Positions 1-19,392 of a stretch of DNA of 51,107 bases are shown one piece after another; the first letter of the stretch is position 1; each line of letters opens with the position of its first letter. The stretch lies in assembly GCA_003141835.1 (NCBI GenBank), contig PLNR01000005.1, positions 1 through 51,107 of the forward strand. The letters run 5' to 3'. The stretch is from Candidatus Omnitrophota bacterium (GTDB lineage: Bacteria > Omnitrophota > Gorgyraeia > Pluralincolimonadales > Pluralincolimonadaceae). The position numbers were made by a program, and so were the translations under genes. The notes beneath the pieces are model-generated. The model saw only the letters and a program-made list of their open reading frames with translations. It ran no database searches and was not told the DNA's origin.

Positions 1-59
1 TGGTGTGCCCCGCTTGAAAACTGTACCACTTAAATGGTATAAAAGTCAAGGAGGCGGAG

Positions 60-404
60 ATGGATGAAATGCACGTAGCGGTAACAAAGGGCGGTAAAAG
101 GAAGTGGAGTCTAGAGCAGAAGATGGGCATCATAGGCGAGCTTAACTCCGGGGTGGATGCAGCGGAGCTGTGCCGCAAGTACAATATCCACGCTCAGATG
201 CTGTATAAGTGGAGAAGGACGTTGGAGTCCGGCGGTAAGGAAGGCCTAAAGGCGGGTAGTGAGATCGTTGCCAAAGGCCAGTACCAGGCGGCCTTGAAGA
301 AGATAGACGAGCTTGAGCGCGCCTTAGGCAGAAAGACCTTAGAGCTCGACATTTTAAAAAAAAGCTTCGAACTAAAGGGGTTAAAATTACCCGAGGGGAT
401 ATAA
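60..404 (+). CDS. IS3-family transposase OrfA (HTH)
   Basis: RKWSLEQK...AAELCRKYNIHAQMLYKWRR HTH followed by a coiled coil (IDELERALGRKTLELDILKK). GGAGG RBS upstream. Confidence 0.9.
   Translation: MDEMHVAVTKGGKRKWSLEQKMGIIGELNSGVDAAELCRKYNIHAQMLYKWRRTLESGGKEGLKAGSEIVAKGQYQAALKKIDELERALGRKTLELDILKKSFELKGLKLPEGI
356..364 (+). other. Programmed -1 frameshift site (AAAAAAAAG) fusing OrfA to OrfB
   Basis: A8G run near the end of orfA. The -1 frame is open from 362 straight into the orfB frame at 434. Confidence 0.8.
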
Positions 405-433
405 GGCTCCTCTCTCTTCGTTGTAACTGCTCT

Positions 434-1255
434 TTGAGAATAGTCTTAAAGGTATTAGGCAAAGGCCAGGGTTGGTACTTTTACAGGATAAAGCCCCGGC
501 GCCTTATCCCCATAATCCGCAGGCCTGAAGTGGCAGAGGCGATAAGAAAAATCATCAAGGACAGGCCTGCCACATACGGTTATCGTCGGGTGCATGCCAA
601 GATAAGGCATATGGGCATAGTATGCGATTCTAAGACGGTAAACCGGTATATGAGGCTTAAATTATGGCTAGCCTCAGACCGCCAGAAGCGCAAAGCGCGG
701 GAGCGCCGGGAAGGCGTGGTCTCAGTTCCTGAGCCTAATATGCGCTGGGCATCGGACTTTACGATCATCAAGGCCTGGAACAACGAAAAAGGCAGGCTTG
801 CAATCGTTATTGATTGCGGTTCCCGTCAGGTGATAGAATACCTATGGGCGAGATCCATCAAAGGCGATGATATCGGCCGTATGGTAGAGAGGGCAACAGA
901 GAAGCGCTTTGCAGATGGACGGGTTCCTTTAGTCGAGTTCCTAAGCGACAACGGTCCCGAGTACATCAAGACGGAGTTGCGGCTCCTGTTAAAGCAAATG
1001 GGCTTTACGGTATGCAATACCCCGATAAGGAGCCCCGAAAGTAACGGCATCGCCGAGTCGTTCTTTAAGAGCTTTAAAAGGGATTACGTCTACCAGAACG
1101 TCTGTGAGAGCTTTGAAGACATTGCCGCTAAAATAGGCGGCTGGATAGAGGACTACAACACCCAGGCGCCTCATAGCGGCTTGGGGATGCGGACACCGGC
1201 GCAGTTCTATGAGGAATGGAAGCTGAAAAGCAGGTTAAAAGTGGTACAGATTTGA
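434..1255 (+). CDS. IS3-family transposase OrfB (DDE integrase core), probably made as an OrfAB fusion
   Basis: YGYRRV, WASDFT, SDNGPEY, SPESNGIAESFFKSFK and YN..PHSGLG..TP motifs. Confidence 0.92.
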   Translation: MRIVLKVLGKGQGWYFYRIKPRRLIPIIRRPEVAEAIRKIIKDRPATYGYRRVHAKIRHMGIVCDSKTVNRYMRLKLWLASDRQKRKARERREGVVSVPEPNMRWASDFTIIKAWNNEKGRLAIVIDCGSRQVIEYLWARSIKGDDIGRMVERATEKRFADGRVPLVEFLSDNGPEYIKTELRLLLKQMGFTVCNTPIRSPESNGIAESFFKSFKRDYVYQNVCESFEDIAAKIGGWIEDYNTQAPHSGLGMRTPAQFYEEWKLKSRLKVVQI

Positions 1256-1416
1256 CTGGGGCGGTCCAATTTAGACATATTGAAGAAACTTTTTTGTGTT
1301 CAAGCCTGGTGGATAAATGAAGTTTTTGATGGGATACCAGATGAAATATGTTCTGACCCAATTGAAAGATACGAGGATAGGCCTCCTTATCCAAGCCCCT
1401 AATGGTATAGGATATA

Positions 1417-2139
1417 ATGAATAATAAATTATTAATGAAGATTATTTTATCGTTAGTTCCTATTTTTTTATTATGTTTTTGTGTTTTCGCAATGTCAGAT
1501 GCTTCTGAGAAAATCGATAATAATTTAGAGGTAAGTCCTAAAGGTGCGTCTCAAGAATTAAATTGGCCTTCTGAAAAGATTATCCAAGAGAAGGCCATAG
1601 CTAAAAATAAAATACCCGTATCTGACTATAACTATCTTAAAGTATGGGTTAATGCAGTGCTAAAAAAAGAATGGATTCCCGCTGATCTTACAGATCAATT
1701 TATTCTTCTGGAAAATTTATATGATGAAAGTGATTATTTCATCGGAAGATATAAAAAGGACAATAACATAATCCAAATTAGGATTGGAGACGGTTACCTC
1801 TGGCTTACCATAGGGCCCAGCAAGGGTCTTTCTTTTTACAAGAACAAAAAAGATTTTGTCTTAGCCGTAGCAAAGACTTTTATAAATTACGACAATACTC
1901 AACATGCAAAAATGAAGATATTATCAAACAGGTATGATGATAATGTTGGAGGAATTAAAATTGAAGAAACTAATACTAAAGGTAATATACAACAAGAATA
2001 TTGGTACGAAGATATCGTGTGGAAAATTACGGATGAATATATAAATTTCAAAATATCTCCACCCAAGAAGATTAAAATTAGCGGTAGGCCGATAGGAGTA
2101 AAGACCGATTGGAAGGGCAGAATGGTTATATCTAAATAA
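1417..2139 (+). CDS. Hypothetical secreted protein, AT-rich
   Basis: 240-aa ORF with an N-terminal hydrophobic signal-like segment. Visibly more AT-rich than the rest of the window. No family recognised. Confidence 0.7.
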   Translation: MNNKLLMKIILSLVPIFLLCFCVFAMSDASEKIDNNLEVSPKGASQELNWPSEKIIQEKAIAKNKIPVSDYNYLKVWVNAVLKKEWIPADLTDQFILLENLYDESDYFIGRYKKDNNIIQIRIGDGYLWLTIGPSKGLSFYKNKKDFVLAVAKTFINYDNTQHAKMKILSNRYDDNVGGIKIEETNTKGNIQQEYWYEDIVWKITDEYINFKISPPKKIKISGRPIGVKTDWKGRMVISK

Positions 2140-2247
2140 GACTTATTTTAATTCGTCGCTCTGGACAAAAAATGACGTTTTATTTATCAAAAATTATATC
2201 ATTACAACATCAGCCACAAAATCAAGGAGGTCCCTCCCATGCGCAAG

Positions 2248-2389
2248 TGGACTGCCCCAGTCAAATCTGTACCACTTTTAACCTGCTTTTTAGCTTCCAT
2301 TCCTCATAGATCTGCGCCGGTGTCCGCATCCCCAGGGTGGTGTGCCCCGCTTAATAACTGTACTACTTTTAATCTGGTTTTTAGCTTCC
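2248..2389 (-). mobile_element. IS end remnants: inverted copy of the IS right end followed by a hybrid end
   Basis: 2248-2334 is near-identical to the reverse complement of about 1182-1268. 2338-2366 resembles the left IR (TGGTGTGCCCCGCTT) and continues with right-end-like inner sequence (TTTTAATCTGGTTTTTAGCTTCC). Confidence 0.85.
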
Positions 2390-2418
2390 GTTTCTTGTAT
2401 AATCGTCCTCAATCTTTC

Positions 2419-2511
2419 CATATCCGCCGCCTCCGCAGCAAGATAGAAGACCGTAAGCATACTTTCATCGAGACTATCCGCAACATCGGCTACAAATTCA
2501 TCGCAGAGTAA
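2419..2511 (+). pseudogene. C-terminal remnant of an OmpR/PhoB-family (GlnR-like) response regulator
   Basis: HIRRLRSKIED...FIETIRNIGYKF* is the recognition helix plus wing of a winged-helix effector domain. The 5' part is replaced by IS-end sequence. Confidence 0.75.
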
Positions 2512-2541
2512 CCCCGCTTTCCCCCTCCGTCCCTCCAAAAA

Positions 2542-2594
2542 TTAATCGGGATTTAACGCGCATGTAATACGGATTTAACATTGATGCGTATACT
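2542..2594 (+). promoter_or_regulatory. Promoter with 11-bp-periodic activator boxes and -10 TATACT
   Basis: TTAAT 2542, TTAAC 2553, GTAAT 2564, TTAAC 2575; TATACT 2589-2594. Confidence 0.7.
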
Positions 2595-2601
2595 TACGGG
2601 T

Positions 2602-2784
2602 ATGAAGATCAAAGAAGATGATCTTGATCGCAAGTTCAGGTGCGCAAAGTGCGGCTACTTGACGCAGCGGCAGGCGCCCCCGAGGAGCTGCCCGATATGC
2701 AGGGCCGGTCCCGGAGCTTTTGACGACATCGGTGTCGACAGGTCAGCGGAGAGAAAAGCGGTTTTTAACCCAAAATTAATTTAG
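2602..2784 (+). CDS. Small rubredoxin-like metal-binding protein
   Basis: FRCAKCGY...PPRSCPICRA..F, the CxxC/CPxC pattern of rubrerythrin-type rubredoxin domains. Start reassigned to ATG 2602. Confidence 0.65.
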   Translation: MKIKEDDLDRKFRCAKCGYLTQRQAPPRSCPICRAGPGAFDDIGVDRSAERKAVFNPKLI

Positions 2785-2817
2785 GGTTAATATGTTTGTA
2801 ATATTGATCGCTATACT
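2765..2817 (+). promoter_or_regulatory. Promoter with 11-bp-periodic activator boxes and -10 TATACT
   Basis: TTAAC 2765, TTAAT 2776, TTAAT 2787, GTAAT 2798; TATACT 2812-2817. Confidence 0.65.
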
Positions 2818-2855
2818 TGCTTAGTGAAAACATTGGGAGAAAGAGAGATGAACAG

Positions 2856-3647
2856 ATGTTCCGTCAAAAGGTATTGGTTTTATGCGTTCTTGGTTTATCT
2901 TCATTAATATTCCCCGCGGCATGCTTCGCGACCGCCACCACCCACATCTGGGCACCGTCCACTGACGTACAGCCGTATGGTGTCATCCACGTAACCCCCG
3001 CGGACGTGTATCTCCCCGTAAAAAAGGACTCATCCGGGAATAGGGTGCCCGTGATAACGAATTCGGGGCTTACCGTGGGCGTGTTGCCTTTCGATAAGTT
3101 CAACGTTGAAGCCGGATTCGACTACAAGGCAGGGTTGGGGGACCTGGATCATGATCCGATGTATTTCAACGCGAAAGGCGGGATACCTGAAGGCGCGTTT
3201 GGAGAGTGGTTCCCGGCCCTGGCTATCGGCGCTTATGATATAGGCACAAAAACCGACAAGACCAATAATAACGTGCTCTACTTCAAAGGTGCGAAGACAT
3301 TCAAGATCAAGGGTTTCGACCTCGGCCGCCTCTCTATGGGGTATTTTAACGGCAATGGCAAGTTGTTACGCGGCCCGAACGGCGGAAAGGACAACGCCGA
3401 TGTTTTCGGCGCCTGGGAGCGCACCATGACTGAAATATCACCAAAGCTCTGGCTCTGCGTCGAGTACCAGGGGACGAAGAGCACCTACGGTTCGTGGAAT
3501 TTCGGCGGGTCGTGGAAATTTTCCGATAACGTCTCGCTGCTCGTAGGTTTCGACCGTTACAACAACAGGAATCTTGCCGATACGGTAACCGTGCAGGTCG
3601 ATATAGATTTTGACGCGTTCAGCAAGCTGTTTAAAGGAAAGAAATAA
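2856..3647 (+). CDS. Secreted protein, probable outer-membrane beta-barrel/porin
   Basis: Signal peptide MFRQKVLVLCVLGLSSLIFPAACFA, then alternating amphipathic Gly/aromatic-rich strands. Start moved to ATG 2856 because the upstream TTG overlaps the predicted -10. Confidence 0.55.
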   Translation: MFRQKVLVLCVLGLSSLIFPAACFATATTHIWAPSTDVQPYGVIHVTPADVYLPVKKDSSGNRVPVITNSGLTVGVLPFDKFNVEAGFDYKAGLGDLDHDPMYFNAKGGIPEGAFGEWFPALAIGAYDIGTKTDKTNNNVLYFKGAKTFKIKGFDLGRLSMGYFNGNGKLLRGPNGGKDNADVFGAWERTMTEISPKLWLCVEYQGTKSTYGSWNFGGSWKFSDNVSLLVGFDRYNNRNLADTVTVQVDIDFDAFSKLFKGKK

Positions 3648-3657
3648 GGAGGCTGCC

Positions 3658-5505
3658 ATGACTGACCTTAAAACGACTTCTCCGGTAGTAAAACCTACGC
3701 TCGGATTATTGGGCGCAACGGTAAACGCCATGGCGCTGATCGCGCCGGGAGCGTTCCTCTGGATCACTTACCAGCTGCAGGCCGCGGCCACGGCGCCGAA
3801 CGGCGCCTCGGTCTCGAGCGATATCTGGGCCGGCATAGTCCTCGCGCTGATCGTCGCGTTCCTTACCGCATTTTCGTACGCGGAGCTGGCGAAGATCTAT
3901 CCGGAAGCGGGTTTTGCGAGCTGCGTCTATTTTGCGGAAAAAGCTTTTCTGGACCGCCACAAAGATAATAAGAGGAGCGCGCCGAATTCTTTAGCGCGTT
4001 TCGCCAAAATAGCAACGGGGTGGGCAGCCCATTTGTTCTACTGGGTATATCCGGGCGTCATGGTCGCGATGATGGCGACGCTTATCGGTTATATTTATAC
4101 CCAGTTTACCGGCCATGCGCTATCGAGCATAGTCCTGACGGTCATAGGCGTGGTTTTTGCGATAGCCACAGGATACATCGCTTTCCGCGGGGTGACCGGC
4201 TCGACCAAGACGGCGTTATGGATAAACGTCATACAGCTTGTCACGCTGGTCATATTCAGCGGATTGGCCATCTGGTACCGTTTTTCCAATCCCCAGCACG
4301 CGGCCCAATGGACGTTCAGCGGGGCCTTGGATATAATGCGGCCCCATTCGATCAGCGGCGTGCTGATACAATCTACGCTGGCCATCCTCATCCTTGTCGG
4401 GTTTGAAAGCTGCACGGCACTCGCCGCCGAGACGAAAAACCCGGAGACTACAATACCGAAGGCGATCATCATATCGCTCGTCATCCAGGGCCTGTTCGCT
4501 TATCTGCTCGAGTATCTTGCGGCAGGGCTCATGCTAAGCGACAAATTTACCATGACTGCCGCAGCCGCCTCAGGGGCTCCCATAGGCGACCTGGCAAAGC
4601 TTATCGGCAATAACCTGCTGGGCGGTCTCGGCTTCGGGCTTATGATAACGATGGCGGTCACGGTGGCTATCGCCATAATAGGCACGACATTAAGCTGTAT
4701 GAGCACGGCCATGCGCGTAAGCTGCGGAATGGCTGCCGACCGTGAATTGCCCGAGATGCTCGGTTTCATGCATGAACGTTTCAGCACTCCCCATGTCTCC
4801 CTCTGGACGCTGGTGATCGTTACCTCGGTGATCGCCGCTATCGGAGTGAGATCTGTCGTGGGCCTGACCGGCATCACGCTTGCCTCGAACTTCGGGACGT
4901 TCATATTATACGGCCTGACCTGCCTCTGGACCATAATCGCGTTCAAGGGCAGGGTGAGGTTTAATTTCATAAAACACTGGCTCATTCCCGCGCTGGGCCT
5001 GGTCACTAATGTAGTAATGGCGATCGCGATCATTTATCTGTACAGCGTCGGTAATGCCGACGCGAAAGCCGAAGCGAATATCTGCTTCCTTATCGCGGGG
5101 GCGTGGGCTGTTATCAGCATCGCGTATGTCGCCGTGACTACCGTCAAGAGGTCATACCGCCTGAAGATGATCTCGTGCATGATACGGCCGGAGCAGCTTA
5201 ATATCGTGACAGAGGCCCTTAAGGAAGACGAACTTATCATGGGCATGACGGTGTCAAAGGTAAAGGGATTCGGCCGGCAGAAGGGTAATGTTGACGCGAG
5301 TTCGGATCCGGGCGAAGACAAGATCACATTCCTTCCCAAGATCAGGGTAGACCTGGTCGTAAAAGACTGGGATGTCAGGAAGGTGATGGATCTTATTGGA
5401 GAGGCTGTCCGTACCGGGAATTTCGGCGACGGAAAGATCTTCGTAGTCGATGCAACGGACGCCATGCGCATACGTACCGGCGAAAAAGGCGTCTGGGCCA
5501 TATAG
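3658..5505 (+). CDS. APC-superfamily amino acid/amine permease fused to a C-terminal PII domain
   Basis: About 12 TM segments with APC motifs (SYAELAKIYPEAG, GFESCTALAAETKNP, FSTPH). The last ~115 aa are PII-like (MIRP, VKGFGRQKG, FLPKIRVDLVV, TGNFGDGKIFV, RIRTGEKG). GGAGG RBS before ATG 3658. Confidence 0.9.
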   Translation: MTDLKTTSPVVKPTLGLLGATVNAMALIAPGAFLWITYQLQAAATAPNGASVSSDIWAGIVLALIVAFLTAFSYAELAKIYPEAGFASCVYFAEKAFLDRHKDNKRSAPNSLARFAKIATGWAAHLFYWVYPGVMVAMMATLIGYIYTQFTGHALSSIVLTVIGVVFAIATGYIAFRGVTGSTKTALWINVIQLVTLVIFSGLAIWYRFSNPQHAAQWTFSGALDIMRPHSISGVLIQSTLAILILVGFESCTALAAETKNPETTIPKAIIISLVIQGLFAYLLEYLAAGLMLSDKFTMTAAAASGAPIGDLAKLIGNNLLGGLGFGLMITMAVTVAIAIIGTTLSCMSTAMRVSCGMAADRELPEMLGFMHERFSTPHVSLWTLVIVTSVIAAIGVRSVVGLTGITLASNFGTFILYGLTCLWTIIAFKGRVRFNFIKHWLIPALGLVTNVVMAIAIIYLYSVGNADAKAEANICFLIAGAWAVISIAYVAVTTVKRSYRLKMISCMIRPEQLNIVTEALKEDELIMGMTVSKVKGFGRQKGNVDASSDPGEDKITFLPKIRVDLVVKDWDVRKVMDLIGEAVRTGNFGDGKIFVVDATDAMRIRTGEKGVWAI

Positions 5506-5516
5506 GGAGGATCGAG

Positions 5517-5855
5517 ATGAAAAAGATAGAAGCCATAATACGGCCCGCGAGGGTGGGCCAGGTATGTTCGGCGCTGGAAAAGTTAGGCCACCCGGGCTTG
5601 ATGATCACGGAGATCGAAGGGCACGGCAAACAGATGGGCCTGGAACAGCAGTTTCGCGGAGAAACATTCAAGACGGAGCTGTTGCCTAAAGCGAAGCTTG
5701 AGATCGTCGTGAAAGATGCCGATGTGGATAAGATAGTCGAGACGATCATAAGATCCGGCAGGACCGGCGAGATAGGCGACGGCAAGATCTTTATTTATAA
5801 CATGGAAGACGCCGTACGCATAAGGACGAGCGAGAGAGGCGAAGGCGCGATCTAA
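5517..5855 (+). CDS. PII nitrogen regulatory protein (GlnB/K family)
   Basis: MKKIEAIIRP...LLPKAKLEIVV...TGEIGDGKIFI...RIRT. Confidence 0.95.
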   Translation: MKKIEAIIRPARVGQVCSALEKLGHPGLMITEIEGHGKQMGLEQQFRGETFKTELLPKAKLEIVVKDADVDKIVETIIRSGRTGEIGDGKIFIYNMEDAVRIRTSERGEGAI

Positions 5856-5856
5856 A

Positions 5857-6033
5857 ATGATCAACAAGGAATTGATAGACAAGATAAGACGGCTGAAGGC
5901 CGATCAGGGATATACCCTGTACGAGTTATCGAAAAGGGTGGACGTCCAGCCGTCCACCCTTGAGAGATGGTTGAAGACCAACCGCATAAACAGGGTTTAT
6001 GCGGAGATGATCACCAGAAAGCTCGGGATATAG
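5857..6033 (+). CDS. Small XRE/Cro-type helix-turn-helix protein (58 aa, not in ORF track)
   Basis: Hand translation: MINKELIDKIRRLKADQGYTLYELSKRVDVQPSTLERWLKTNRINRVYAEMITRKLGI*. Starts 1 nt after the PII stop. Confidence 0.8.
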   Translation: MINKELIDKIRRLKADQGYTLYELSKRVDVQPSTLERWLKTNRINRVYAEMITRKLGI

Positions 6034-6105
6034 GGATTTTTTTTGCCGGTTTTTTGCAATTGGATATACAAATGGTTAAACGAAAGAAATAAAAGGAGGT
6101 AAGCG

Positions 6106-7443
6106 ATGGGAAAGTACCTGAAGAAGAGCGCGTTCTGGTTTTTCGCGGCTTTTCTGCTCTTCACTGTAATAGCGACGGTAGTCGCGGCCGCGGAGGTCAC
6201 TCCTGCGGCTAAGGTCGACACCGGTGATACGGCATGGCTTTTGACATCGGCGGCGCTGGTGTTATTGATGACGCCGGCCCTGGCATTTTTCTACGGCGGC
6301 CTCGTGCGCAGGAAGAACGTGCTTTCGATCCTGATGCAGTGCTTCATGCTGATGTGCCTCATAACCGTACAATGGGTACTTTTTGGTTACAGCCTTGCCT
6401 TCGGTCCCGATATAAAGGGGATAATAGGCAGCCTCGGGTGGTTCGGGCTCAAAGGAGTGGGGCTTGAACCGTATCCGGCCTATGCCGCGACCGTCCCTCA
6501 TCAGGCATTCATGATATTCCAGGCGATGTTTGCCATAATAACTCCCGGCCTAATATGCGGCGCATTCGCCGAGAGGATGAAGTTCTCGACGTTCTGTATC
6601 TTTACTCTTTTATGGGCAACGCTAGTATATGATCCTGTTTGCCACTGGGTCTGGGGCGTCGGAGGATTTTTAAGGGCGGGTGGTGCGCTCGATTTCGCGG
6701 GAGGCACGGTCGTCCATATCAATGCCGGTGTCGCAGCGTTAGCATGCGCCCTCGCATTGGGGAAACGTAAAGGCTATCCCGATAAGATATCCCCGCCGCA
6801 CAACCTGCCGTTCGCAGTCTTGGGGGCAGGCCTGCTCTGGTTCGGATGGTTCGGGTTCAACGGCGGAAGCGCTCTTGGTTCCGGCTCGCTTGCGACGAAC
6901 GCGTTTGTAGTGACGCACGTTGCGGCTGCTACTGCCGGCCTGACCTGGGCCCTCCTTGACTGGATATTCAGTTCCCGTTCCACCGTCTTAGGTATTATAA
7001 CCGGCGCTGTCGGAGGCCTTGTCGCGATAACCCCGGCGTCAGGTTTCGTCAATGTTGTCGGCGCATTATGGATAGGCATAGGCGTCTCGGTATTCTGCTA
7101 CATGGCCGTTGCCATATTAAAAGTGAAGTTTGGCTATGACGATTCGCTTGACGCTTTCGGCGTCCACGGCGTAGGAGGCATTTGGGGGGCCCTGGCTACC
7201 GGCCTCTGGGCGACAAAAATGGTCAATCCGGCCGGCGCGAACGGCCTTTTTTACGGCAACCCGGCGCAGTTCCTTATACAGTTCAAGGCCGTTATAATCA
7301 CCGCGGTTTATTCGTTCGTAATGACTTTCGTGATACTTAAGGCCCTCAATGCCTTTATGGGTGTTCGCGCTTCGGAACAGGATGAGCGTATCGGCCTGGA
7401 CCTTACACAACACCGTGAAGCCGGTTACACGGTCTTAGATTAG
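6106..7443 (+). CDS. amtB: Ammonium transporter, copy 1
   Basis: FYGGLVRRKN, FQAMFAIIT, DFAGGTVVH, LLWFGWFGFNGGS, DDSLDAFGVHG; both pore His conserved. Confidence 0.97.
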   Translation: MGKYLKKSAFWFFAAFLLFTVIATVVAAAEVTPAAKVDTGDTAWLLTSAALVLLMTPALAFFYGGLVRRKNVLSILMQCFMLMCLITVQWVLFGYSLAFGPDIKGIIGSLGWFGLKGVGLEPYPAYAATVPHQAFMIFQAMFAIITPGLICGAFAERMKFSTFCIFTLLWATLVYDPVCHWVWGVGGFLRAGGALDFAGGTVVHINAGVAALACALALGKRKGYPDKISPPHNLPFAVLGAGLLWFGWFGFNGGSALGSGSLATNAFVVTHVAAATAGLTWALLDWIFSSRSTVLGIITGAVGGLVAITPASGFVNVVGALWIGIGVSVFCYMAVAILKVKFGYDDSLDAFGVHGVGGIWGALATGLWATKMVNPAGANGLFYGNPAQFLIQFKAVIITAVYSFVMTFVILKALNAFMGVRASEQDERIGLDLTQHREAGYTVLD

Positions 7444-7451
7444 GAGGAACC

Positions 7452-7793
7452 ATGAAATATATTGTAGCAATAATACAACCCGATAAACTCGATGAGGTGC
7501 TTACGAAACTTGAAGAAAAGGAGATACACCTGGTGACCGTGACCAGCGTGATGGGCCGCGGCCGCCAGAAAGGCATCTCCGAGGTCTACAGGAGCCATAA
7601 GGAGGCGGGCAGCCTGCTTAAAAAGGTAAAGCTGGAGATCGCCGTGAACGATGATTTTGTAAAACCGACCATAGATGCCATAACGTCCGGCGCAAGGACC
7701 GGCCACGTAGGCGACGGAAAGATATTTATTCTCGATTTGCCGGAATGTATTCGTATACGTACAGGAGAGAAGGGAAATCCTGCAATTGGATAG
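7452..7793 (+). CDS. glnK: PII protein, amtB-linked copy 1
   Basis: PII motifs GRGRQKG, TGHVGDGKIFI, RIRTGE; directly downstream of amtB. Confidence 0.9.
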   Translation: MKYIVAIIQPDKLDEVLTKLEEKEIHLVTVTSVMGRGRQKGISEVYRSHKEAGSLLKKVKLEIAVNDDFVKPTIDAITSGARTGHVGDGKIFILDLPECIRIRTGEKGNPAIG

Positions 7794-7826
7794 ATTAAAG
7801 CGGGTGACTGGGCAGGCAGGACCCGC

Positions 7827-7890
7827 CCAAGCGAACTGATTGTCGGGGAGAGATTGCGATTTAACATTAACGTAACATGGATTTAACATT
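7827..7890 (+). repeat. Intergenic direct repeat, copy 1 (copy 2 at 9788-9853)
   Basis: CCAAGCGAACTGATTGTCGGGGAGAG..ATTG.GATTTAACAT...GTAA.ATGGATTTAACATT is shared upstream of amtB2 and glnA. Confidence 0.9.
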
Positions 7891-7903
7891 CAGTTAGTAC
7901 ACT
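7861..7903 (+). promoter_or_regulatory. amtB2 promoter with 11-bp-periodic boxes
   Basis: TTAAC 7861, GTAAC 7872, TTAAC 7883; TACACT 7898-7903. Confidence 0.7.
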
Positions 7904-8000
7904 ATTCCCATAAAATTGGGACGGAAACAAAGTAATTTTTTGCCCTAAATTTATCAATTGAATAATCAATTGTATAAATGACCGGCAAACAAAAGGATAT

Positions 8001-9344
8001 ATGGGAATGATAAAGTTGTTCAAACGTCCGCAGTTCTGGTTTCTTGCGGCCTTCCTGCTCTTCACGATAGCCGCGACAGTAGTGGCTGCGGCAGAAGCCG
8101 CTCCCGCGCCTAAGGTAGATTCCGGTGATACAGCATGGCTCCTCACTTCGGCGGCGTTAGTCCTGCTCATGACGCCGGGACTGGCATTCTTCTACGGCGG
8201 ACTGGTCCGCCGCAAGAACGTACTTTCATTATTGATGCAGTGTTTTATGCTCATGTGCCTCATCACGATGCAGTGGGCCTTGTTCGGTTACAGCCTTGCC
8301 TTCGGGCCTGACATAAAAGGTATCATAGGCAGCCTCGGGTGGTTCGGGCTCAAAGGAGTGGGGCTTGAACCGTATCCGGCCTATGCCGCGACCGTCCCTC
8401 ATCAGGCATTCATGATATTCCAGGCGATGTTTGCCATAATAACTCCCGGCCTAATATGCGGCGCATTCGCCGAGAGGATGAAATTCTCGACGTTCTGCGT
8501 ATTCACGCTTATCTGGGCGACCCTCGTATACGATCCGGTCTGCCACTGGGTATGGGGCGCCGGCGGGTTCCTTAAGGCCGCAGGAGTGCTTGATTTTGCC
8601 GGCGGTATCGTCGTCCACATCAATGCCGGCGTGGCGGCATTAGCATGCGCCCTCGTATTGGGGAAACGTAAAGGCTATCCCGACAAGATATCCCCGCCGC
8701 ACAACCTGCCGTTCGCAGTCTTGGGGGCAGGCCTGCTCTGGTTCGGATGGTTCGGGTTCAACGCAGGGAGCGCGCTCACATCAGGCGCACTGGCGACAAG
8801 CGCTTTTGTGAATACCCAGTTTGCCGGCGCGGCCGCAGGCCTGACCTGGGCCCTCCTTGACTGGATATTCAATTCCCGTTCGACGGTCTTAGGCATCATA
8901 ACCGGAGCTGTCGGCGGCCTCGCCGCGGTGACCCCTGCCTCGGGTTTTATAACTCCCATAGGCGCAATATGGATAGGGATCGTCGTTTCGGCATTATGCT
9001 ACATGGCGGTCGCGATATTGAAAAATAAATTGGGCTACGACGATTCGCTCGACGCTTTCGGCGTCCACGGCATCGGCGGAATGTGGGGGACGCTGGCTGC
9101 CGGCCTCTGGGCGACAACCATGGTCAATCCTGCCGGCGCGAACGGCCTTTTTTACGGCAACCCGGCGCAGTTCTTCATCCAGTTAAAGGCCGTGGTAATA
9201 ACTTCCGTATATTCATTTGTCATGACTTTTGTGATCCTTAAGGTCCTCAACGCGGTTATGGGCGTGCGCGCCTCGGAGCAGGACGAGCGCATCGGCCTCG
9301 ACCTTACGCAACACCGTGAAGCCGGCTACACGATCTTAGATTAA
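8001..9344 (+). CDS. amtB: Ammonium transporter, copy 2
   Basis: Same Amt motifs as copy 1; close paralogue of 6106-7443. Confidence 0.97.
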   Translation: MGMIKLFKRPQFWFLAAFLLFTIAATVVAAAEAAPAPKVDSGDTAWLLTSAALVLLMTPGLAFFYGGLVRRKNVLSLLMQCFMLMCLITMQWALFGYSLAFGPDIKGIIGSLGWFGLKGVGLEPYPAYAATVPHQAFMIFQAMFAIITPGLICGAFAERMKFSTFCVFTLIWATLVYDPVCHWVWGAGGFLKAAGVLDFAGGIVVHINAGVAALACALVLGKRKGYPDKISPPHNLPFAVLGAGLLWFGWFGFNAGSALTSGALATSAFVNTQFAGAAAGLTWALLDWIFNSRSTVLGIITGAVGGLAAVTPASGFITPIGAIWIGIVVSALCYMAVAILKNKLGYDDSLDAFGVHGIGGMWGTLAAGLWATTMVNPAGANGLFYGNPAQFFIQLKAVVITSVYSFVMTFVILKVLNAVMGVRASEQDERIGLDLTQHREAGYTILD

Positions 9345-9353
9345 GGAGGAACC

Positions 9354-9695
9354 ATGAAATATATTATTGCTATAATCCAGCCTGACAGGCTAGATGATGT
9401 GTTGACGAAATTGGAAGAAAAGGAGATACACCTGGTGACCGTGACCAGCGTGATGGGCCGCGGCCGCCAGAAAGGCATCTCCGAGGTCTACAGGAGCCAT
9501 AAGGAGGCGGGCAGCCTGCTTAAAAAGGTAAAGCTGGAGATCGCCGTGAATGACGATTTCGTAAAACCTGCGGTAGAGGCGATAAAGTCAGGCGCGCGCA
9601 CAGGCCACGTCGGCGACGGCAAGATATTCATCCTCGACCTGCAGGAAGCCATCCGCATCCGCACGGGCGAGAAGGGCGGCCCGGCGATAGGATAA
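9354..9695 (+). CDS. glnK: PII protein, amtB-linked copy 2
   Basis: PII motifs; near-identical to 7452-7793. Confidence 0.9.
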   Translation: MKYIIAIIQPDRLDDVLTKLEEKEIHLVTVTSVMGRGRQKGISEVYRSHKEAGSLLKKVKLEIAVNDDFVKPAVEAIKSGARTGHVGDGKIFILDLQEAIRIRTGEKGGPAIG

Positions 9696-9787
9696 TGTGT
9701 ATTTCGAAATGCCGACCGGACAATCAGGTTCGCGCAGAGCCGATTTATGACGCAGTTGCTATCGGTCGAAGCGAGTAATAAATAAGG

Positions 9788-9853
9788 CCAAGCGAACTGA
9801 TTGTCGGGGAGAGAGATTGAGATTTAACATCCGTGTAATATGGATTTAACATT
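9788..9853 (+). repeat. Intergenic direct repeat, copy 2 (copy 1 at 7827-7890)
   Basis: Direct sequence comparison with 7827-7890. Confidence 0.9.
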
Positions 9854-9866
9854 GGGGCTGTATACT
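9824..9866 (+). promoter_or_regulatory. glnA promoter with 11-bp-periodic boxes
   Basis: TTAAC 9824, GTAAT 9835, TTAAC 9846; TATACT 9861-9866. Confidence 0.7.
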
Positions 9867-9899
9867 TTTGGCATAAAATAAAAAGGGAGGTAAGCCAGC

Positions 9900-11411
9900 A
9901 TGAAAGGGAAAGCAGTAAAGAAGGGGGCAGCGGAAGTGAAGACAAAAAATCCGCTCGTGAACGGCGCGTTCGACGAAAAGGCCGCGCGCGACGTGATGAA
10001 GATGGTGAAGGAAAAGAAGATCGATATAATCGATCTTAAGTTCAACGACCTGCCGGGGTTGTGGCAGCATTTCTCGATACCGGCTTCGGAATTGCTCGAG
10101 ATGGATGATATAACACGCTCCATCTGGGTCGATGGCATCGGGTTCGACGGCTCCTCGATCCGCGGTTTCCAGAAGATACAGGAATCGGACATGATCATGA
10201 TACCGGACCCGGCTACCGCGGTCATCGACCCCATATGCGAGGTCCCGACCTTAAGCATTATCTGCGATATTTACGACCCGTTGACGCGTAAACCGTATTC
10301 ACGCGATCCGCGTTATATCGCGAAGAAAGCTGAGAAATACCTCAAAGAAACCGGCATAGCCGACTCGATCTATTTCGGCCCCGAAGCCGAGTTCTTCCTT
10401 TTTAACGACGTCCGTTTCGACCAGAACGAGAATTCCGGTTATTACTATATCGATTCGGATGAAGCCGACTGGAACACCGGGCGCAAGGAAGACCCGAACT
10501 TAGGGTATAAGATCCGTTTCAAGGAAGGGTATTTCCCTGTCCCGCCGCACGATACGCTCCAGGATCTAAGGAGCCGCATGATCTTGAAGATGAAGGAAGC
10601 GGGAGTGACCATAGAGGTTCATCATCACGAGGTTGCCACAGCCGGACAATGCGAGATCGACATCAAATTCGATAAACTGACCAAGATGGCCGACAAACTT
10701 TTGATGTACAAATACATCATAAAGAACATGGCCAGGAAGAACGGCATGGTAGCGACATTCATGCCGAAGCCGCTCTTCGCGGACAACGGTTCGGGAATGC
10801 ATTGCCACCAGAGCCTCTGGAAAAACGGCGTCAACCTCTTCTACGACAAGAACGGCTACGCGCTCATAAGCCAGACCGCCAAATATTACATCGGCGGCCT
10901 GTTAAAGCACGCGAACAGCCTTATGGCCTTCTGTGCCCCTACGACAAACTCTTATAAGAGATTGGTCCCGGGCTATGAAGCGCCTGTAAACCTTGTATAT
11001 TCGGCGCGCAACCGCTCGGCGGCCGTCCGCATACCGATGTACAGCGACAGCCCGAAATCCAAGAGGATCGAGTTCAGGCCTCCGGATCCGTCATGCAACG
11101 GCTACATCGCCTTCAGCGCCATGCTCATGGCCGGTTTGGACGGTATCATCAACAAGATCGATCCGGGCAAACCGACCGACAAGGACCTCTTCGAATTGAG
11201 CGGCGAAGAGATAGCCAAGATACCTACGGTGCCGTCATCGCTGAAGCGCGCGATGGATGCATTGGAAGCGGACCACGAGTACCTGCTTAGAGGCGGGGTA
11301 TTCACAAAGGATGTTATAGACATTTGGCTGGAATTCAAGAGGAAGAAAGAGATAGACGCGGTGAGAATGCGTCCGCATCCTTACGAGTTCTACCTCTATT
11401 TCGATATTTAA
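9900..11411 (+). CDS. glnA: Glutamine synthetase type I (GSI-beta-like)
   Basis: [60 protein letters not shown]. Carries the beta-type insertion. Confidence 0.97.
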
Positions 11412-11416
11412 GGGTA

Positions 11417-11438
11417 TGGTAGAGAGTCTACTCTACCA
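11417..11438. terminator. Hairpin between convergent genes
   Basis: TGGTAGAG-AGTCTA-CTCTACCA, 8-bp perfect stem between the two stop codons. No clear U-tract. Confidence 0.45.
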
Positions 11439-12284
11439 CTATTCGAGAGGCGGTTTATAAGTAGGGGCGGTTCCTAATTGATTGGCTGGCTGCCCACCCC
11501 CAATGTTGGGCGCAGGAGCTGCCCCTTCTTTTTTAGAGAAGGCCAGGTACCCCATAGTAAATAATCCTACGACGGGAATGATCGTAATAACCCCGATCCA
11601 TCCCTCCTTGCCGCGCGCCAAAGCGATCCTGAACCAGATGAAACCGAAGAGGAACAGGTCGCATATCGGCGCCAAGAAAGCTCCCAGTATCGGCACAAAC
11701 CCGGTAAGGAGCAACAATAGCCAAACATATCTTACGTTCCCTATCTTGCATGCCAGGAAGAGGTTCGCAATGGGTATCCATGCCATCCAGCCGTTTTGGG
11801 TATCCGTTTTCCTTGCGATGGCCTGGAGGCATACGGCAGAATAGATATAAAAGATCAGGCAGGCGATTATTATGACCCCGAGGAATGCCATTATGATGGC
11901 GGCTAACACGACCTTGCTTTCTTTATCCGGTAATTTGATCTTAGGGGTTTCTGTGACGGAAAGGCCCGATAATTTTTCTTCCTGGGACGGGCTTAGAGGT
12001 GTCACGGCTTCAGCCACCGGCGGGACAGTCTCGACGGTTTCGGCCTGAGGCGCGGGCGATGCTTCCGCAGGTTTAAGGTCCACCGCCTGCCCGTTTATCT
12101 CCCGTATGTCGGCGAGGTCATAAGTCATCTCGGTTACGCCGTAAAGGTCTACGGTCACGGAATTATTGGTTATCGCCTTGATATTCCCTTCGACCTTCTT
12201 GCCGGACCTGAAAGTTACCGTATCCGCCCACGCGTTCACCGTTAAAAGCGCAATCGCCGCGCACACTAAGAGTATCTTTTTCAT
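11439..12284 (-). CDS. Membrane protein: signal peptide, small periplasmic domain, DUF5684-like C-terminal TM region
   Basis: MKKILLVCAAIALLTVNAWA, Pro/Ala/Glu linker, then IARKT...GWMAWIPIANL...GYLAFS. Confidence 0.7.
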   Translation of the reverse strand: MKKILLVCAAIALLTVNAWADTVTFRSGKKVEGNIKAITNNSVTVDLYGVTEMTYDLADIREINGQAVDLKPAEASPAPQAETVETVPPVAEAVTPLSPSQEEKLSGLSVTETPKIKLPDKESKVVLAAIIMAFLGVIIIACLIFYIYSAVCLQAIARKTDTQNGWMAWIPIANLFLACKIGNVRYVWLLLLLTGFVPILGAFLAPICDLFLFGFIWFRIALARGKEGWIGVITIIPVVGLFTMGYLAFSKKEGAAPAPNIGGGQPANQLGTAPTYKPPLE

Positions 12285-12358
12285 TGTTACCCCCTATATA
12301 CCTAAATTGTATCCAAACTTACCCCCAAAGGCAAGGATTATCGTCAAAAAATCTTTTC

Positions 12359-12386
12359 TTGCATTTTCAGGAAAGTTTGGTATAAT
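12359..12386 (+). promoter_or_regulatory. Sigma70-type promoter for nadE-glnA2-ANTAR
   Basis: TTGCAT-16 bp-TATAAT with extended -10 TG. Confidence 0.6.
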
Positions 12387-12405
12387 AGGGGGCTAAATTA
12401 GCGAG

Positions 12406-14124
12406 GTGAAAATGGATCCGATCCGCTTTGGCATAGCCCAAATAAACCCCACCGTGGGTAACCTTCAGGGCAATAAAGAGAAGATAATAAAGTGCATAAG
12501 TGACGCAAGATCATTGGGTTGCGACATCGTTATCCTCCCGGAGCTCGCTATAACCGGCTATCCGCCGGAAGACCTCCTCCTAAAGCCCCAGTTTGCCGAT
12601 GACGCCATGAAGATCCTTAATGAGATAGCCCATAAGACCGATAATATCATAGTGATCCTGGGTTGCCTGGACAAGACCAAGGACGGGATCTATAATTCGG
12701 CCGCTCTTATCCGCGACAAGGAACTTATCCATATATATCATAAGATACTGCTCCCGAATTACGGCGTTTTTGACGAAAAGAGGTATTTCAGGGCCGGCAA
12801 CGAGTCCTTTGCGTTCAAATTCGAGGGGCTTAAGATCGGCCTGAATATCTGCGAGGATATCTGGGATGGCAGCGGACCGGCCAGTTTCGAGGCTGTCGAT
12901 ATGGGCGCGCAGGTCATAATAAATATTTCAGCCTCTCCTTACCACGCCGGCAAGCTGCATGCCCGCGAGAAGATGCTTGTCGAAAGGGCGCAGCAGACCG
13001 CCTCGATAATCCTTTATGACAACCTCGTAGGCGGGCAGGATGAGCTCGTATTCGACGGCGGTAGCATGGTAATAGGCTGGAAGGGCAGCATTCTCGCACG
13101 CGGGAAACAATTTGAAGAGGACATAGCGCTCTTCGACCTCAATCCCGAGGAATACCTTAAATACAGGAAGGTGCCGGCCAGGAAGCCGGCCGTAAATAAT
13201 TACAGGGCCAAGGAACTTTCCCTTAAGAGATGCGAAGTGAAGATAAGGCCGCCTTTCCCGCCGCGCCGCCTTGAGAAATTAGGCAGCGTAGAGGAGATAT
13301 ACAAGGCGCTTGTCCTGGGCACCAGGGATTATATGACTAAGAACGGGTTCAAGAAGGCGGTAGTCGGAGTGAGCGGGGGAATAGATTCGGCCCTGACCGC
13401 CTGCATAGCCGTAGACGCGCTCGGCAAGGACAATGTCGCGGCCGTGACGATGCCTTCGATGTACACAAAAGAAGAGACCCGCGCCGACGCTGTCGCCGTC
13501 GCAAAAAACCTCGGCCTGAAGACGATAACCATACCCATAAATACCATCCACCTGGCGTATACGCGCATGCTTAAAAAGGAGTTCAAGGACTCCAAGGTCG
13601 ACATAACCGAGGAGAACCTGCAGGCGAGGATACGCGGCAACATCCTTATGGCGCTTTCGAATAAATTCAACTGGCTCGTCCTGACGACCGGCAATAAGAG
13701 TGAGATGTCGGTGGGTTACTGCACCCTTTACGGCGATATGGCCGGCGGTTTCGCGGTACTGAAGGATGTCCTGAAGACCGTAGTCTACCAGTTGTCTGAA
13801 TACAGGAACGCAATCGCCGGGAAAGAGGTCATCCCGGTCACGACGATAAAGAGGGCTCCGACCGCCGAATTGAAACCCAACCAGAAAGACCAGGACACGC
13901 TTCCGCCTTATCACGTGCTTGATGGCATACTGAAACTTTATGTCGAGGAAGACAAGTCGGCTGGCGAGATCGTCGCCCAGCGTTTCGACGCTAAGGTCGT
14001 GAAGAAGGTCATCTCGATGGTCGATAAGAGCGAGTATAAAAGGCGCCAGAGCCCGCCCGGGGTCAAGATAACCCCGAAGGCCTTCGGCAAGGACCGCAGG
14101 GTGCCCATAACAAACAGATATTAA
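12406..14124 (+). CDS. nadE: Glutamine-dependent NAD+ synthetase
   Basis: Nitrilase domain (PELAITGYPPEDL, LPNYGVFDEKRYF, ICEDIW) plus synthetase domain (GVSGGIDS, ENLQARIRG, TGNKSE, EYKRRQ). Confidence 0.97.
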   Translation: MKMDPIRFGIAQINPTVGNLQGNKEKIIKCISDARSLGCDIVILPELAITGYPPEDLLLKPQFADDAMKILNEIAHKTDNIIVILGCLDKTKDGIYNSAALIRDKELIHIYHKILLPNYGVFDEKRYFRAGNESFAFKFEGLKIGLNICEDIWDGSGPASFEAVDMGAQVIINISASPYHAGKLHAREKMLVERAQQTASIILYDNLVGGQDELVFDGGSMVIGWKGSILARGKQFEEDIALFDLNPEEYLKYRKVPARKPAVNNYRAKELSLKRCEVKIRPPFPPRRLEKLGSVEEIYKALVLGTRDYMTKNGFKKAVVGVSGGIDSALTACIAVDALGKDNVAAVTMPSMYTKEETRADAVAVAKNLGLKTITIPINTIHLAYTRMLKKEFKDSKVDITEENLQARIRGNILMALSNKFNWLVLTTGNKSEMSVGYCTLYGDMAGGFAVLKDVLKTVVYQLSEYRNAIAGKEVIPVTTIKRAPTAELKPNQKDQDTLPPYHVLDGILKLYVEEDKSAGEIVAQRFDAKVVKKVISMVDKSEYKRRQSPPGVKITPKAFGKDRRVPITNRY

Positions 14125-14138
14125 AAAAGGAGAAAGAG

Positions 14139-15479
14139 ATGGCAGCCAAATCGATCAAGGACAAAGAATATGTATTAAAGATGGCCAAGGAGGCCAACGT
14201 AAAGTTCATCAGGCTGTGGTTCACCGACATCCTGGGATTTGTAAAATCTTTCGCAATAACGGTAGAGGAGCTCGAAGGGGCGCTCGAAGAGGGCATGGGA
14301 TTTGACGGTTCCTCTATCGAGGGTTTCGCGCGCATAGACGAGTCGGACATGATGGCGCGGCCCGACCCAAGCACTTTCGTACTTCTTCCCTGGAGGCCGA
14401 AGGACGAATTCGCCGTCGCCAGGATGTTCTGCGATATCGTCCGGCCTGACGGTTCGCCTTTCGAGGGGGACCCGAGATATATATTGAAGCAGAACCTGAA
14501 GCGCGCGGCGAAACTCGGATTCACTTTTTACGTCGGGCCCGAGCTGGAGTTCTTCTATTTCAAGGATAATAAAGGGACCGAGCCGCTAGACGCGGGCGGG
14601 TATTTCGACCTTATACCGCCTGACCCGGCATCGGATTTGAGGCGCGATACGGTCCTCATGCTCGAGGCGATGGGCATAGGCGTCGAATACAGCCATCACG
14701 AAGTCGCGCCGAGCCAGCACGAGATAGACTTAAGATATACCGACGCGCTCACGATGGCGGATGCGGCGATGACATACCGCGTCGTCGTCAAGGAGGTCGC
14801 CCAGCGCTACGGTTATTACGCGACGTTCATGCCCAAGCCGGTGTACGGGGTGAATGGGTCGGGCATGCACGTCCACCAGTCGCTCTTTAAGGGCGACAAG
14901 AACGCCTTCTTTGAAGCGAAGGATAAATACCATCTTTCAAAGCTGGCAAAGAACTATATCGCAGGCCTGCTCAAGCATTCGCGCGAGATAACCTCGGTCA
15001 CGAGCCAGTGGGTCAACTCATACAAGAGGCTCGTCCCGGGCTATGAGGCGCCGGTATACATCGCGTGGGCAAAGAGGAACCGCTCGACGCTGGTAAGGAT
15101 ACCCGAATACAAGCCCGGAAAAGAGAAGGCGACGCGCGTAGAATACCGCTCGCCGGACCCCGCGTGCAATCCTTATCTTGCGTTCAGTGTCATGCTTGCC
15201 GCGGGACTAGAGGGCATTGAGAAGAATTACGAGCTAATCCCTCCGACCGAAGAGAACGTCTTTGAATTGACGCCGGAAGAGAGGACGAAGCGCGGGATAA
15301 GGCCGTTACCCGGCGACCTTTATGAGGCTATATGCGAAACCGAGAAGAGTTCCGTGGTAAGGAAAGCCCTCGGCGAGCACGCCTTCCGTTCGTTTATCGA
15401 GAACAAGAAGATAGAGTGGGATAAATACAGGGCCCGCGTCACCGATTATGAGTTAAAGGAATACCTTTCGATATTATGA
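14139..15479 (+). CDS. glnA: Glutamine synthetase type I (GSI-alpha-like), second copy
   Basis: [50 protein letters not shown]. 446 aa, lacking the beta insertion. Confidence 0.92.
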   Translation: MAAKSIKDKEYVLKMAKEANVKFIRLWFTDILGFVKSFAITVEELEGALEEGMGFDGSSIEGFARIDESDMMARPDPSTFVLLPWRPKDEFAVARMFCDIVRPDGSPFEGDPRYILKQNLKRAAKLGFTFYVGPELEFFYFKDNKGTEPLDAGGYFDLIPPDPASDLRRDTVLMLEAMGIGVEYSHHEVAPSQHEIDLRYTDALTMADAAMTYRVVVKEVAQRYGYYATFMPKPVYGVNGSGMHVHQSLFKGDKNAFFEAKDKYHLSKLAKNYIAGLLKHSREITSVTSQWVNSYKRLVPGYEAPVYIAWAKRNRSTLVRIPEYKPGKEKATRVEYRSPDPACNPYLAFSVMLAAGLEGIEKNYELIPPTEENVFELTPEERTKRGIRPLPGDLYEAICETEKSSVVRKALGEHAFRSFIENKKIEWDKYRARVTDYELKEYLSIL

Positions 15480-16207
15480 CGCGTAAACCCGCGGCCAAAA
15501 GCCCGAAATCGCAGTCGTCATACGAGAAACAGATAGAGGCGTTATCGAAAATAAGCCAGACGATAGCCTCAAACCTTTACCTGGAAGACGTCCTGCGCCT
15601 TATAGTCATGGTCACGGCCGAGGTGATGAACTCAAAAATATGCTCGCTCATGCTCGTGGACGAGGAGAAGGGCGAACTTGTCATACGCGCTACCCAGAGC
15701 GTCAGCGAAGCGTATAACAAGAAACCCAACATGAAGATAGGCGCCGGGATAGCCGGGAAGGCCGCCAAGGAAGGAAAGCCGATCCAGGTATCGGATGTCC
15801 GCGGCGACCCGCGTTACCTGAACAGGGATATCGCCAAAAGCGAGAAGCTCTGCTCGCTCCTCTCGATGCCGATGACGGTGAAAGGGAAGGTCATAGGCGT
15901 CCTGAACGTCTATACATCGACGCCCCATATCTTTACTCGGAATGAGATAAACGTCCTGACTTCGGTCGCCAACCAGGCGGCAGTCGCCATAGAGAACGCC
16001 CAGCTGATGGTCAGGTCCAAGGTAATACAGGAGGAGCTCGAGGCCCGCAAGATGGTCGAGAGGGCGAAGGGGATACTGATGCGCAGGGGCATGGCCGAGG
16101 AAGACGCTTTCAGGAAGATACAGAAACAGGCGATGAGCCTGCGCAAGACGATGAAGCAGATCGCCGAAGCTATAATACTGACCGACGAGCTGGAGCGGGA
16201 CAAGTAG
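15476..16207 (+). CDS. GAF + ANTAR domain RNA-binding regulator
   Basis: GAF (GIAGKAA...VIGVLNV...VANQAAVAIENA) followed by ANTAR (RKMVERAKGILM..EEDAFRKIQKQAMSLRKTMKQIAEAII). Confidence 0.92.
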   Translation: MTRKPAAKSPKSQSSYEKQIEALSKISQTIASNLYLEDVLRLIVMVTAEVMNSKICSLMLVDEEKGELVIRATQSVSEAYNKKPNMKIGAGIAGKAAKEGKPIQVSDVRGDPRYLNRDIAKSEKLCSLLSMPMTVKGKVIGVLNVYTSTPHIFTRNEINVLTSVANQAAVAIENAQLMVRSKVIQEELEARKMVERAKGILMRRGMAEEDAFRKIQKQAMSLRKTMKQIAEAIILTDELERDK

Positions 16208-16212
16208 CCCTA

Positions 16213-16241
16213 TTGACTTTAATAAGTTTTTATAATATAAT
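16213..16241 (+). promoter_or_regulatory. Sigma70-type promoter for the glycan locus
   Basis: TTGACT-17 bp-TATAAT. Confidence 0.7.
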
Positions 16242-16972: not shown

Positions 16973-16978
16973 AAACCC

Positions 16979-19387: not shown

Positions 19388-19392
19388 AGGAG

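Follow-up and report, generated by a model that had tools for sequence, protein, structure and literature searches.

The fused permease–PII gene

The window analysed here is a stretch of 51,107 nucleotides (nt) of the forward strand of contig PLNR01000005.1 (assembly GCA_003141835.1, Candidatus Omnitrophota bacterium; host genome 1.57 Mb, 97.7% complete), and all coordinates given below are positions within it. It encodes a protein that joins an APC-type permease to a domain of the PII family, and a second, free PII gene follows directly. The fusion lies in a single open reading frame (ORF; 3610–5505, + strand), in which an ATG at 3658, preceded 7 nt upstream by AGGAGG, yields a product of 615 amino acids (aa). 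Its permease part (residues 1–497; 3658–5148, +) comprises 12 transmembrane (TM) helices with the APC/SLC7 fold, and its PII domain (residues 502–615; 5161–5505, +) starts with PII position 1 at residue 502, or nt 5161. Pfam assigns residues 56–464 to AA_permease_2 (73.2 bits, cut-off 27), residues 114–503 to AA_permease (59.4 bits, cut-off 24.6) and residues 503–609 to P-II (75.5 bits, cut-off 25, E 4.7e-21); NCBIfam recognises the same two halves, with no family at cut-off. An earlier note on this DNA, made from the letters alone, had described one ORF with a complete PII fold (about 5161–5505) after the last TM helix, a description with which the open frame, Pfam and the AlphaFold2 (AF2) model agree.

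The two parts are joined without an intervening linker. In the AF2 model of the fusion (pLDDT 82.7, pTM 0.81, 50-row alignment), the helix of residues 467–500 (TM12) passes straight into PII strand 502–509, which places the junction at 5149–5160 (+), as judged from the modelled secondary structure and the alignment of fused relatives; across 38 fused sequences (alignment A1) it contains no indel. A junction of fixed length that runs from helix into strand would hold the PII domain rigidly at the membrane face, and the geometry of the domain relative to the membrane is fixed in the model.

To place the fusion among its relatives, 304 stretches encoding a relative were drawn from one-genome-per-species contigs and 80 loci were kept for analysis. 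A script found the permease ORF in 76 of these (none in L039 and L072; in L058 and L078 a contig end truncates the locus), and 74 of the 76 are fused, the unfused ones being L081 and L084. All of the best 120 listed relatives carry PF00543 together with an AA_permease family (597–654 aa, 69–96% identity). A query with the PII part only retrieved 621 clusters of 338–1077 aa at E<=1e-5 among 782 candidates, and the best 120 clusters almost all have the permease–PII architecture. The combination is common in databases, where relatives are named only 'amino acid permease', 'APC family permease' or 'P-II family nitrogen regulator', and is unstudied rather than unseen.

There is a negligible chance that a lost stop codon or a frameshift in the assembly created the fusion. 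Only run X1 contains the complete stretch, and this peat metagenome is possibly the source sample itself and therefore not independent (X7 and X8 contain short pieces of relatives), but the Logan contig of this run, produced by a second assembler, matches 3600–6100 with 0 differences and 0 gaps at a depth of ~20, with no stop or frameshift at the junction, and the fused relatives come from many independent assemblies with identical junction length. This conservation rules against an assembly artefact, which we rejected. We conclude that the APC–PII fusion is real and conserved. It represents an unstudied variant of nitrogen transport under PII control, and its architecture is widespread in databases.

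A dedicated partner and three classes of PII

The free PII gene (5517–5855, +; 112 aa; Pfam P-II, 98.8 bits), which the earlier note had placed immediately downstream, starts 11 nt past the fusion stop and has its own GGGAGGA. Linkage was counted in the 70 of 74 fused loci that extend at least 400 nt downstream of the fusion. A free PII follows directly in 56 of them, starting between -4 and +156 nt from the stop, and in 5 loci the start at -4 nt creates a 4-nt overlap of the two genes. The partner lies 0.8–1.5 kb away in another 4/70 loci, at least 3 of which have a barrel or porin gene in between. In a quick maximum-likelihood tree (SH-aLRT) built from a set of 208 PII sequences drawn from the window and the loci, three classes separate: a fused clade (77 rows, 75 of them fused; support 100), a partner clade (61 rows, comprising 52 partners, 7 'other' and 2 Amt-linked; support 96) and an Amt-linked clade (48 rows; support 99). 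Several rows counted as 'other' in the partner clade are themselves partners, with one gene between them and the fusion. The free PII is a dedicated, co-inherited partner of the fusion.

By sequence, the fused PII is closest to GlnK proteins, which it matches in the Protein Data Bank (PDB) at E 1e-25 to 1e-20 (best match GlnK1, 7p4v, E 3.9e-25), and it scores below cut-off against the NCBIfam GlnB/GlnK equivalogs (86.2 bits vs 181; 83.8 bits vs 202). The AF2 model has the PII order beta-alpha-beta-beta-alpha-beta, with strands at 502–509, 529–539, 557–569 and 594–598 and helices at 511–523 and 570–584. Among 75 fused domains, G27 (75), T29 (74), G37 (75), R38 (72), Q39 (63), K58 (75), G87/D88/G89/K90 (75), R101 (75) and R103 (65) are conserved, and the copy in the window keeps G27, T29, G37, R38, Q39, K58, G87–K90, R101 and R103. 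In canonical PII proteins these positions bind ATP/ADP, Mg and 2-oxoglutarate. The testable part of the earlier note's claim of a built-in 2-oxoglutarate/ATP-ADP sensor is thereby borne out, since the complete domain keeps the canonical ligand-binding residues.

The classes differ in the T-loop. The stretch between positions 37 and 58 has 20–35 residues in the fused domains (75 rows), with E/D/G at position 47 and D/E at position 51, so that the fused T-loop is variable and acidic and lacks a fixed-length R47/Y51 form. It has 22 residues in 55 of 56 partner rows, with R47 in 47/56 and Y51 in 52/56 (the partner in the window has R47 and F51), and 22 residues in 56 of 57 Amt-linked rows, with R47 in 57/57 and E51 in 48/57. 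In a single database protein from one contig (P0274), the permease-fused PII is joined in frame through a 15-residue linker to a partner-type PII; an apparent frameshift at the N-terminus kept it from being counted as a Rosetta stone, and the double-PII frame may be an assembly error.

The permease and its unfused sister lineage

Hydropathy resolves 12 hydrophobic segments in the permease, with TM12 at 475–493, and the AF2 helices agree with them. Placing the lysine/arginine-rich loop of residues 75–125 inside puts the C-terminus of the fusion, and therefore its PII domain, in the cytoplasm. Foldseek relates the permease model to GkApcT (5oqt, E 2.5e-12, TMt 0.79), ApcT (0.79), BasC (0.78) and AdiC (0.75) at no more than 18% identity, and the closest solved carrier by sequence, xCT (7ccs), is barely matched (E 1.6e-6). 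The permease core is highly conserved in the alignment, as in a working carrier. No APC subfamily of known cargo in NCBIfam comes near its cut-off, the best being TIGR00909 with 71.7 bits vs 556.8, and the Ammonium_transp family of Pfam does not match the fusion ORF, while it does match both Amt genes downstream. Among 36 flanking genes tested with Pfam there are porins, other APC permeases, regulators and two GGACT genes, with no common catabolic enzyme as a clue to the cargo. At L053, L057, L068 and L076, a second, longer APC permease (626–681 aa, AA_permease_2) adjoins the PII-fused one.

Fused loci span about ten phyla, mostly in metagenome-assembled genomes from peat, fen or bog. In a FastTree inference of 88 permease domains, all 75 fused sequences fall in one clade (support 100), with which a single origin of the fusion would therefore be compatible. 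Directly next to it, within a clade of 78 (support 100), stand the unfused L081, L084 and L086, whereas P0124 and L085 branch further out. Phyla are intermixed within the tree. Among 201 Omnitrophota genomes, 9 match the fusion at E<=1e-30, including that of the window itself and one that matches in the PII part only, and neither the same-genus genome nor either of the two same-family genomes has a match. This patchy distribution points to horizontal transfer.

The unfused permeases have a different neighbourhood. A scan of metagenomes with the unfused relative P0124 gave only 5 loci. In all five unfused loci with downstream sequence (L081, L084, L085, L086 and L089), the permease is followed by a gene for a PP2C phosphatase and then one for a Ser/Thr kinase; the phosphatase has Pfam support in four of the five, and L089 has a 261-aa gene without a match at that position. 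No PII is directly adjacent in these five loci, and BLAST found none anywhere in L085–L089; L084 has a canonical PII 1.9 kb downstream, together with the upstream barrel gene discussed below. That one lineage of carriers is accompanied by either a PII module or a phosphorylation module argues that the activity of the carrier is under tight post-translational control.

The nitrogen locus and the remainder of the window

The gene upstream of the fusion was called porin-like in the earlier note, a term that holds as a fold class only. This gene (2856–3647, +, ending 10 nt before the fusion; the ORF opens at 2817, and M14 at 2856 is the likely start) has no Pfam or NCBIfam match. Its AF2 model shows a signal helix and 12 beta strands (pLDDT 82), for which Foldseek finds the COG4313 outer-membrane channel 4rl8 as the best match (E 8.9e-07, TM-score 0.47–0.48), followed by OmpC/OmpF, and we predict an outer-membrane 12-strand beta-barrel. 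A search of the Atlas, in which the record starts at residue 14, returned only unnamed clusters. Homologues of the barrel adjoin the fusion in 14 fused loci, as well as the permease of the unfused L084, and BBP2 porins were found in 6 of the 36 neighbours tested with Pfam. Outer-membrane barrels that accompany the fusion fit a role in import.

Downstream of the partner, 1 nt past its gene, lies a 58-aa protein (5857–6033, +) with weak Pfam matches to the helix-turn-helix (HTH) families HTH_26 and HTH_23, homologues of which occupy the same place in 7 loci. It is followed by an ammonium transporter Amt (copy 1, 6106–7443, +; TIGR00836, 468.9 bits; PF00909) and its GlnK-type PII (7452–7793, +; a member of the Amt-linked clade, supported by Pfam), by a second Amt (8001–9344, +; NCBIfam and Pfam) with a second GlnK-type PII (9354–9695, +; Pfam and PII tree), and by a type I glutamine synthetase, GlnA (9900–11411, +; TIGR00653, 673.4 bits). 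The amt–PII pair is tandemly duplicated over 6106–9695, the copies being 78–88% identical and 1.9 kb apart (families D1 and D2). Many related loci likewise continue with amt–PII pairs and glnA, or have a GAF/sigma-54 activator at their start.

A 33-nt operator-like motif on the + strand (direct-repeat family D4), made of two direct GATTTAAC half-sites 22 nt apart, precedes the operon of the fusion (2550–2582), amt copy 2 (7858–7890) and glnA (9821–9853). With up to 3 mismatches it has exactly 3 sites in the 1.57-Mb genome, all at the nitrogen locus, and a reversed control gave 0; the pattern was derived from these three copies, so only its absence elsewhere is informative. It is absent from the related loci, where the other matches occur only in loci cut from the same genome. 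The motif common to the operon, amt and glnA links the permease operon to nitrogen genes, and the 58-aa HTH protein is one candidate for the protein that binds it. The sigma-54 consensus gave 19 matches (<=2 mismatches) vs 35 expected, none of them upstream of the operon; Rfam found no match at E<=0.1 in positions 1–17000; and scans for sigma-70 promoters and terminators did not rise above shuffled controls. As to expression, RNA run X9 contains only fragments below 90% identity, and no RNA run is listed with the stretch.

Four PII domains were found in the host genome, all of them at this locus, and no domain of the uridylyltransferase GlnD was detected in it. The output of PII should therefore rest here on ligand binding and partner binding. 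These features, with genes for the glutamine-dependent NAD synthetase NadE and a second GlnA just downstream, would suit an arrangement in which the permease mainly serves as an anchor and substrate sensor that captures or releases the partner PII, and thereby informs cytoplasmic targets in the manner of AmtB–GlnK; NadE is a published PII target (PMC7196632). We nonetheless consider such a transceptor or sequestration role improbable, since the permease core is conserved like that of a working carrier and the permease travels with outer-membrane channels.

Further features lie on either side of this locus. An IS3-type transposase pair occupies the start of the contig (HTH_Tnp_1, 60–404; rve integrase, 434–1255). 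A 90-aa ORF (2239–2511) just upstream of the first 33-nt motif matches only the last ~30 positions of the OmpR-type winged-helix domain and looks like a remnant of a response regulator, judging from this partial match, and a 60-aa ORF with two CxxC pairs, zinc-ribbon-like as read from its sequence, lies between that motif and the barrel gene (2602–2784, +). Past the locus, 12406–16207 encodes the NAD synthetase (CN_hydrolase and NAD_synthase domains), the second glutamine synthetase and a GAF-ANTAR regulator. It is followed by a glycan-utilisation cluster (16301–30406) with CBM11 proteins, a GH35/42 beta-galactosidase-like and a glucoamylase-like protein, a ROK regulator, two solute-binding proteins, a GH94 phosphorylase and an ABC permease. 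Further along, 37258–44922 encodes a protein of 2554 aa that has a C25 (gingipain-type) peptidase domain at its C-terminus and also contains the propeptide of this domain and a TSP3 repeat.

Complex model and proposed mechanism

We modelled a complex of one fusion protein with two copies of the partner PII. This 1:2 model reached an ipSAE of 0.61 (runs 0.60, 0.61 and 0.65) vs 0.00 for the best of 3 controls, and the 0.61 mark is reached by 58 of 80 solved complexes and by 2 of 110 mismatched pairs. At least 87% of contacts are common to the runs, and the partner has a pLDDT of at least 71. All confident contacts fall in residues 503–615 and touch both partner copies, as in a PII-type trimer; since PII trimers have been solved many times, the model speaks for resemblance and for a sterically plausible assembly, but is no demonstration of binding. 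Heterotrimers of PII proteins do have a precedent in experiments on E. coli (van Heeswijk 2000, as cited in PMC5448240). The proposal of the earlier note that the adjacent PII is a trimer partner accords with a dedicated, co-inherited gene and with a model that passes its controls, perhaps only through likeness to solved PII trimers.

The best explanation that we can offer, and which we hold tentatively with a little less than even confidence, is that the locus encodes a nitrogen-regulated uptake module with a tethered, two-part PII switch. Such a module would consist of the outer-membrane barrel, an inner-membrane APC-fold permease for a small nitrogen compound and the two PII components. The fused PII would act as a permanent membrane tether that joins two co-translated partner subunits into a heterotrimer beneath the transporter, the inter-subunit clefts of which would bind ATP/ADP and 2-oxoglutarate. 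Under nitrogen scarcity (high 2-oxoglutarate, Mg-ATP), the switch would not restrain the carrier. Once nitrogen is available again (low 2-oxoglutarate, ADP), the basic, conserved T-loops of the partner would change shape and lock the cytoplasmic side of the carrier, which could stop uptake within seconds, as GlnK does on AmtB. The import direction, the cargo, the 1:2 stoichiometry in cells and T-loop gating are elements that we infer, as is the substrate class 'amino acid/amine' of the earlier note; its observation is otherwise confirmed, and its interpretation supported in every testable part.

Several results weigh against this proposal. One fusion with two partners is the only stoichiometry that the complex prediction covered, and its passing of the controls may stem from likeness to solved PII trimers. 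The model contains no confident contact between the partner and residues 1–500, and so lends no support to T-loop gating, although a residue that the predictor does not name is no evidence against a contact there. No partner PII lies nearby in 10/70 loci, mostly of a divergent branch at 54–64% identity, and the fusion is apparently able to work alone there or with another PII. Mirror-tree (Mantel) comparison gives r 0.72 for the fused PII vs its partner and r 0.51–0.64 for the Amt-linked PII vs the permease, the fused PII or the partner; as all PII classes co-vary with the permease (r 0.51–0.72), this test does not single out the partner. Finally, the BcaP, FrlA and urea-carboxylase permease models all score far below their NCBIfam cut-offs with the fusion permease.

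The same partner-less loci, which are nested inside the fused clade of the permease tree, would fit a model in which the fused PII domains trimerise with themselves and force the permease into a trimer, leaving the free PII to form its own trimer that docks on the assembly or regulates other targets, for instance glutamine synthetase, NadE or a transcription factor. Betaine/carnitine-type LeuT-fold carriers are trimeric, and the ligand and core signature of the fused domain is as complete as would be expected if this PII were self-sufficient. We regard a homotrimer as rather unlikely, given that the partner clade is dedicated and found almost only beside the fusion, that the partner is often translationally coupled (the 4-nt overlaps) and that the 1:2 model passes its controls. 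A stricter form of the tethered-switch proposal appears possible but doubtful: the fused PII would be the obligate anchor of a fixed 1:2 heterotrimer under a monomeric LeuT-fold carrier, with PP2C/kinase swapped in within the sister lineage, and the carrier would be a key control point or transceptor of nitrogen scavenging across about ten phyla of anoxic peat microbes. If true, it would provide the first examples of a PII switch that is asymmetric by construction and of an APC transporter under PII control.

Relation to known systems and implications

A close parallel to the proposed tethered switch is AmtB–GlnK, in which a PII is likewise encoded beside a nitrogen transporter in a nitrogen-assimilation locus, an adjacency conserved here in 56/70 loci. 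The AmtB–GlnK structures 2ns1 and 2nuu are among the PDB matches of the fused PII domain, and the partner PII keeps R47 at the tip of the T-loop, as do the Amt-linked PIIs of these loci. The systems differ in that the transporter here has the APC/SLC7 and not the Amt fold, in that one PII is covalently joined and another PII, different from the first, is co-inherited if not required, and in that the 1:2 model shows no confident contact between a T-loop and the carrier. Post-translational control by PII-family proteins also extends to nutrient transporters other than AmtB. The PII-family protein SbtB regulates the transporter SbtA. Cyanobacterial PII controls Amt1 and the nitrate and urea ABC importers (PMC6603209). 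These regulators, however, are free proteins with ABC, Amt or SbtA transporters as targets; fusions and APC carriers do not occur among them.

KimA (8b70, TMt 0.61 vs the permease in Foldseek) is a LeuT/APC-fold K+ carrier with a fused C-terminal nucleotide-sensing domain (c-di-AMP), but it belongs to another subfamily and its sensor has another fold and ligand, with no PII. AexB (YvjA) of Bacillus subtilis is a five-TM amino-acid exporter with a fused cytoplasmic PII-like cap that was modelled as a trimer (PMC13170310, mBio 2026, as far as its available text goes), and hence a transporter covalently joined to a PII-fold domain. By analogy, the carrier described here could export a nitrogen compound as a safety valve at nitrogen excess. 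We consider this very improbable, because the gene is part of a scavenging cluster in which it shares a motif with amt and glnA, because outer-membrane channels accompany it, and because the five-TM fold of AexB is unrelated to the 12-TM APC fold. Its domain, moreover, is only PII-like rather than a canonical PF00543 domain, and in the same text AexB appears without a partner PII and without a nitrogen locus. Our literature search, in line with the earlier note, found no description of an APC–PII fusion and no natural PII–transporter fusion other than AexB, including in the accessible text of PMC10433425.

PII proteins are the most widespread sensors of nitrogen, carbon and energy status. Among transporters, the PII targets known to us are Amt channels, SbtA and a small number of ABC importers. 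A carrier of the APC/SLC7 fold with a covalent PII and a dedicated second PII would add a new class of PII target, and a tethered, possibly heterotrimeric PII would be a new way of wiring the switch. As the sensor is fused, there is no doubt about which target the regulator is paired with, and the family is thus well suited to studying how a PII trimer controls a rocking-bundle carrier. The sister lineage has the same APC subfamily in unfused form, but with a PP2C phosphatase and a Ser/Thr kinase in place of the fused and adjacent PII, and so allows two ways of regulating one carrier to be compared in nature. In uncultured anaerobes from peat and wetland habitats poor in nitrogen the family is common, and it seems to pass between phyla; its cargo, once known, would reveal which nitrogen source these communities compete for.

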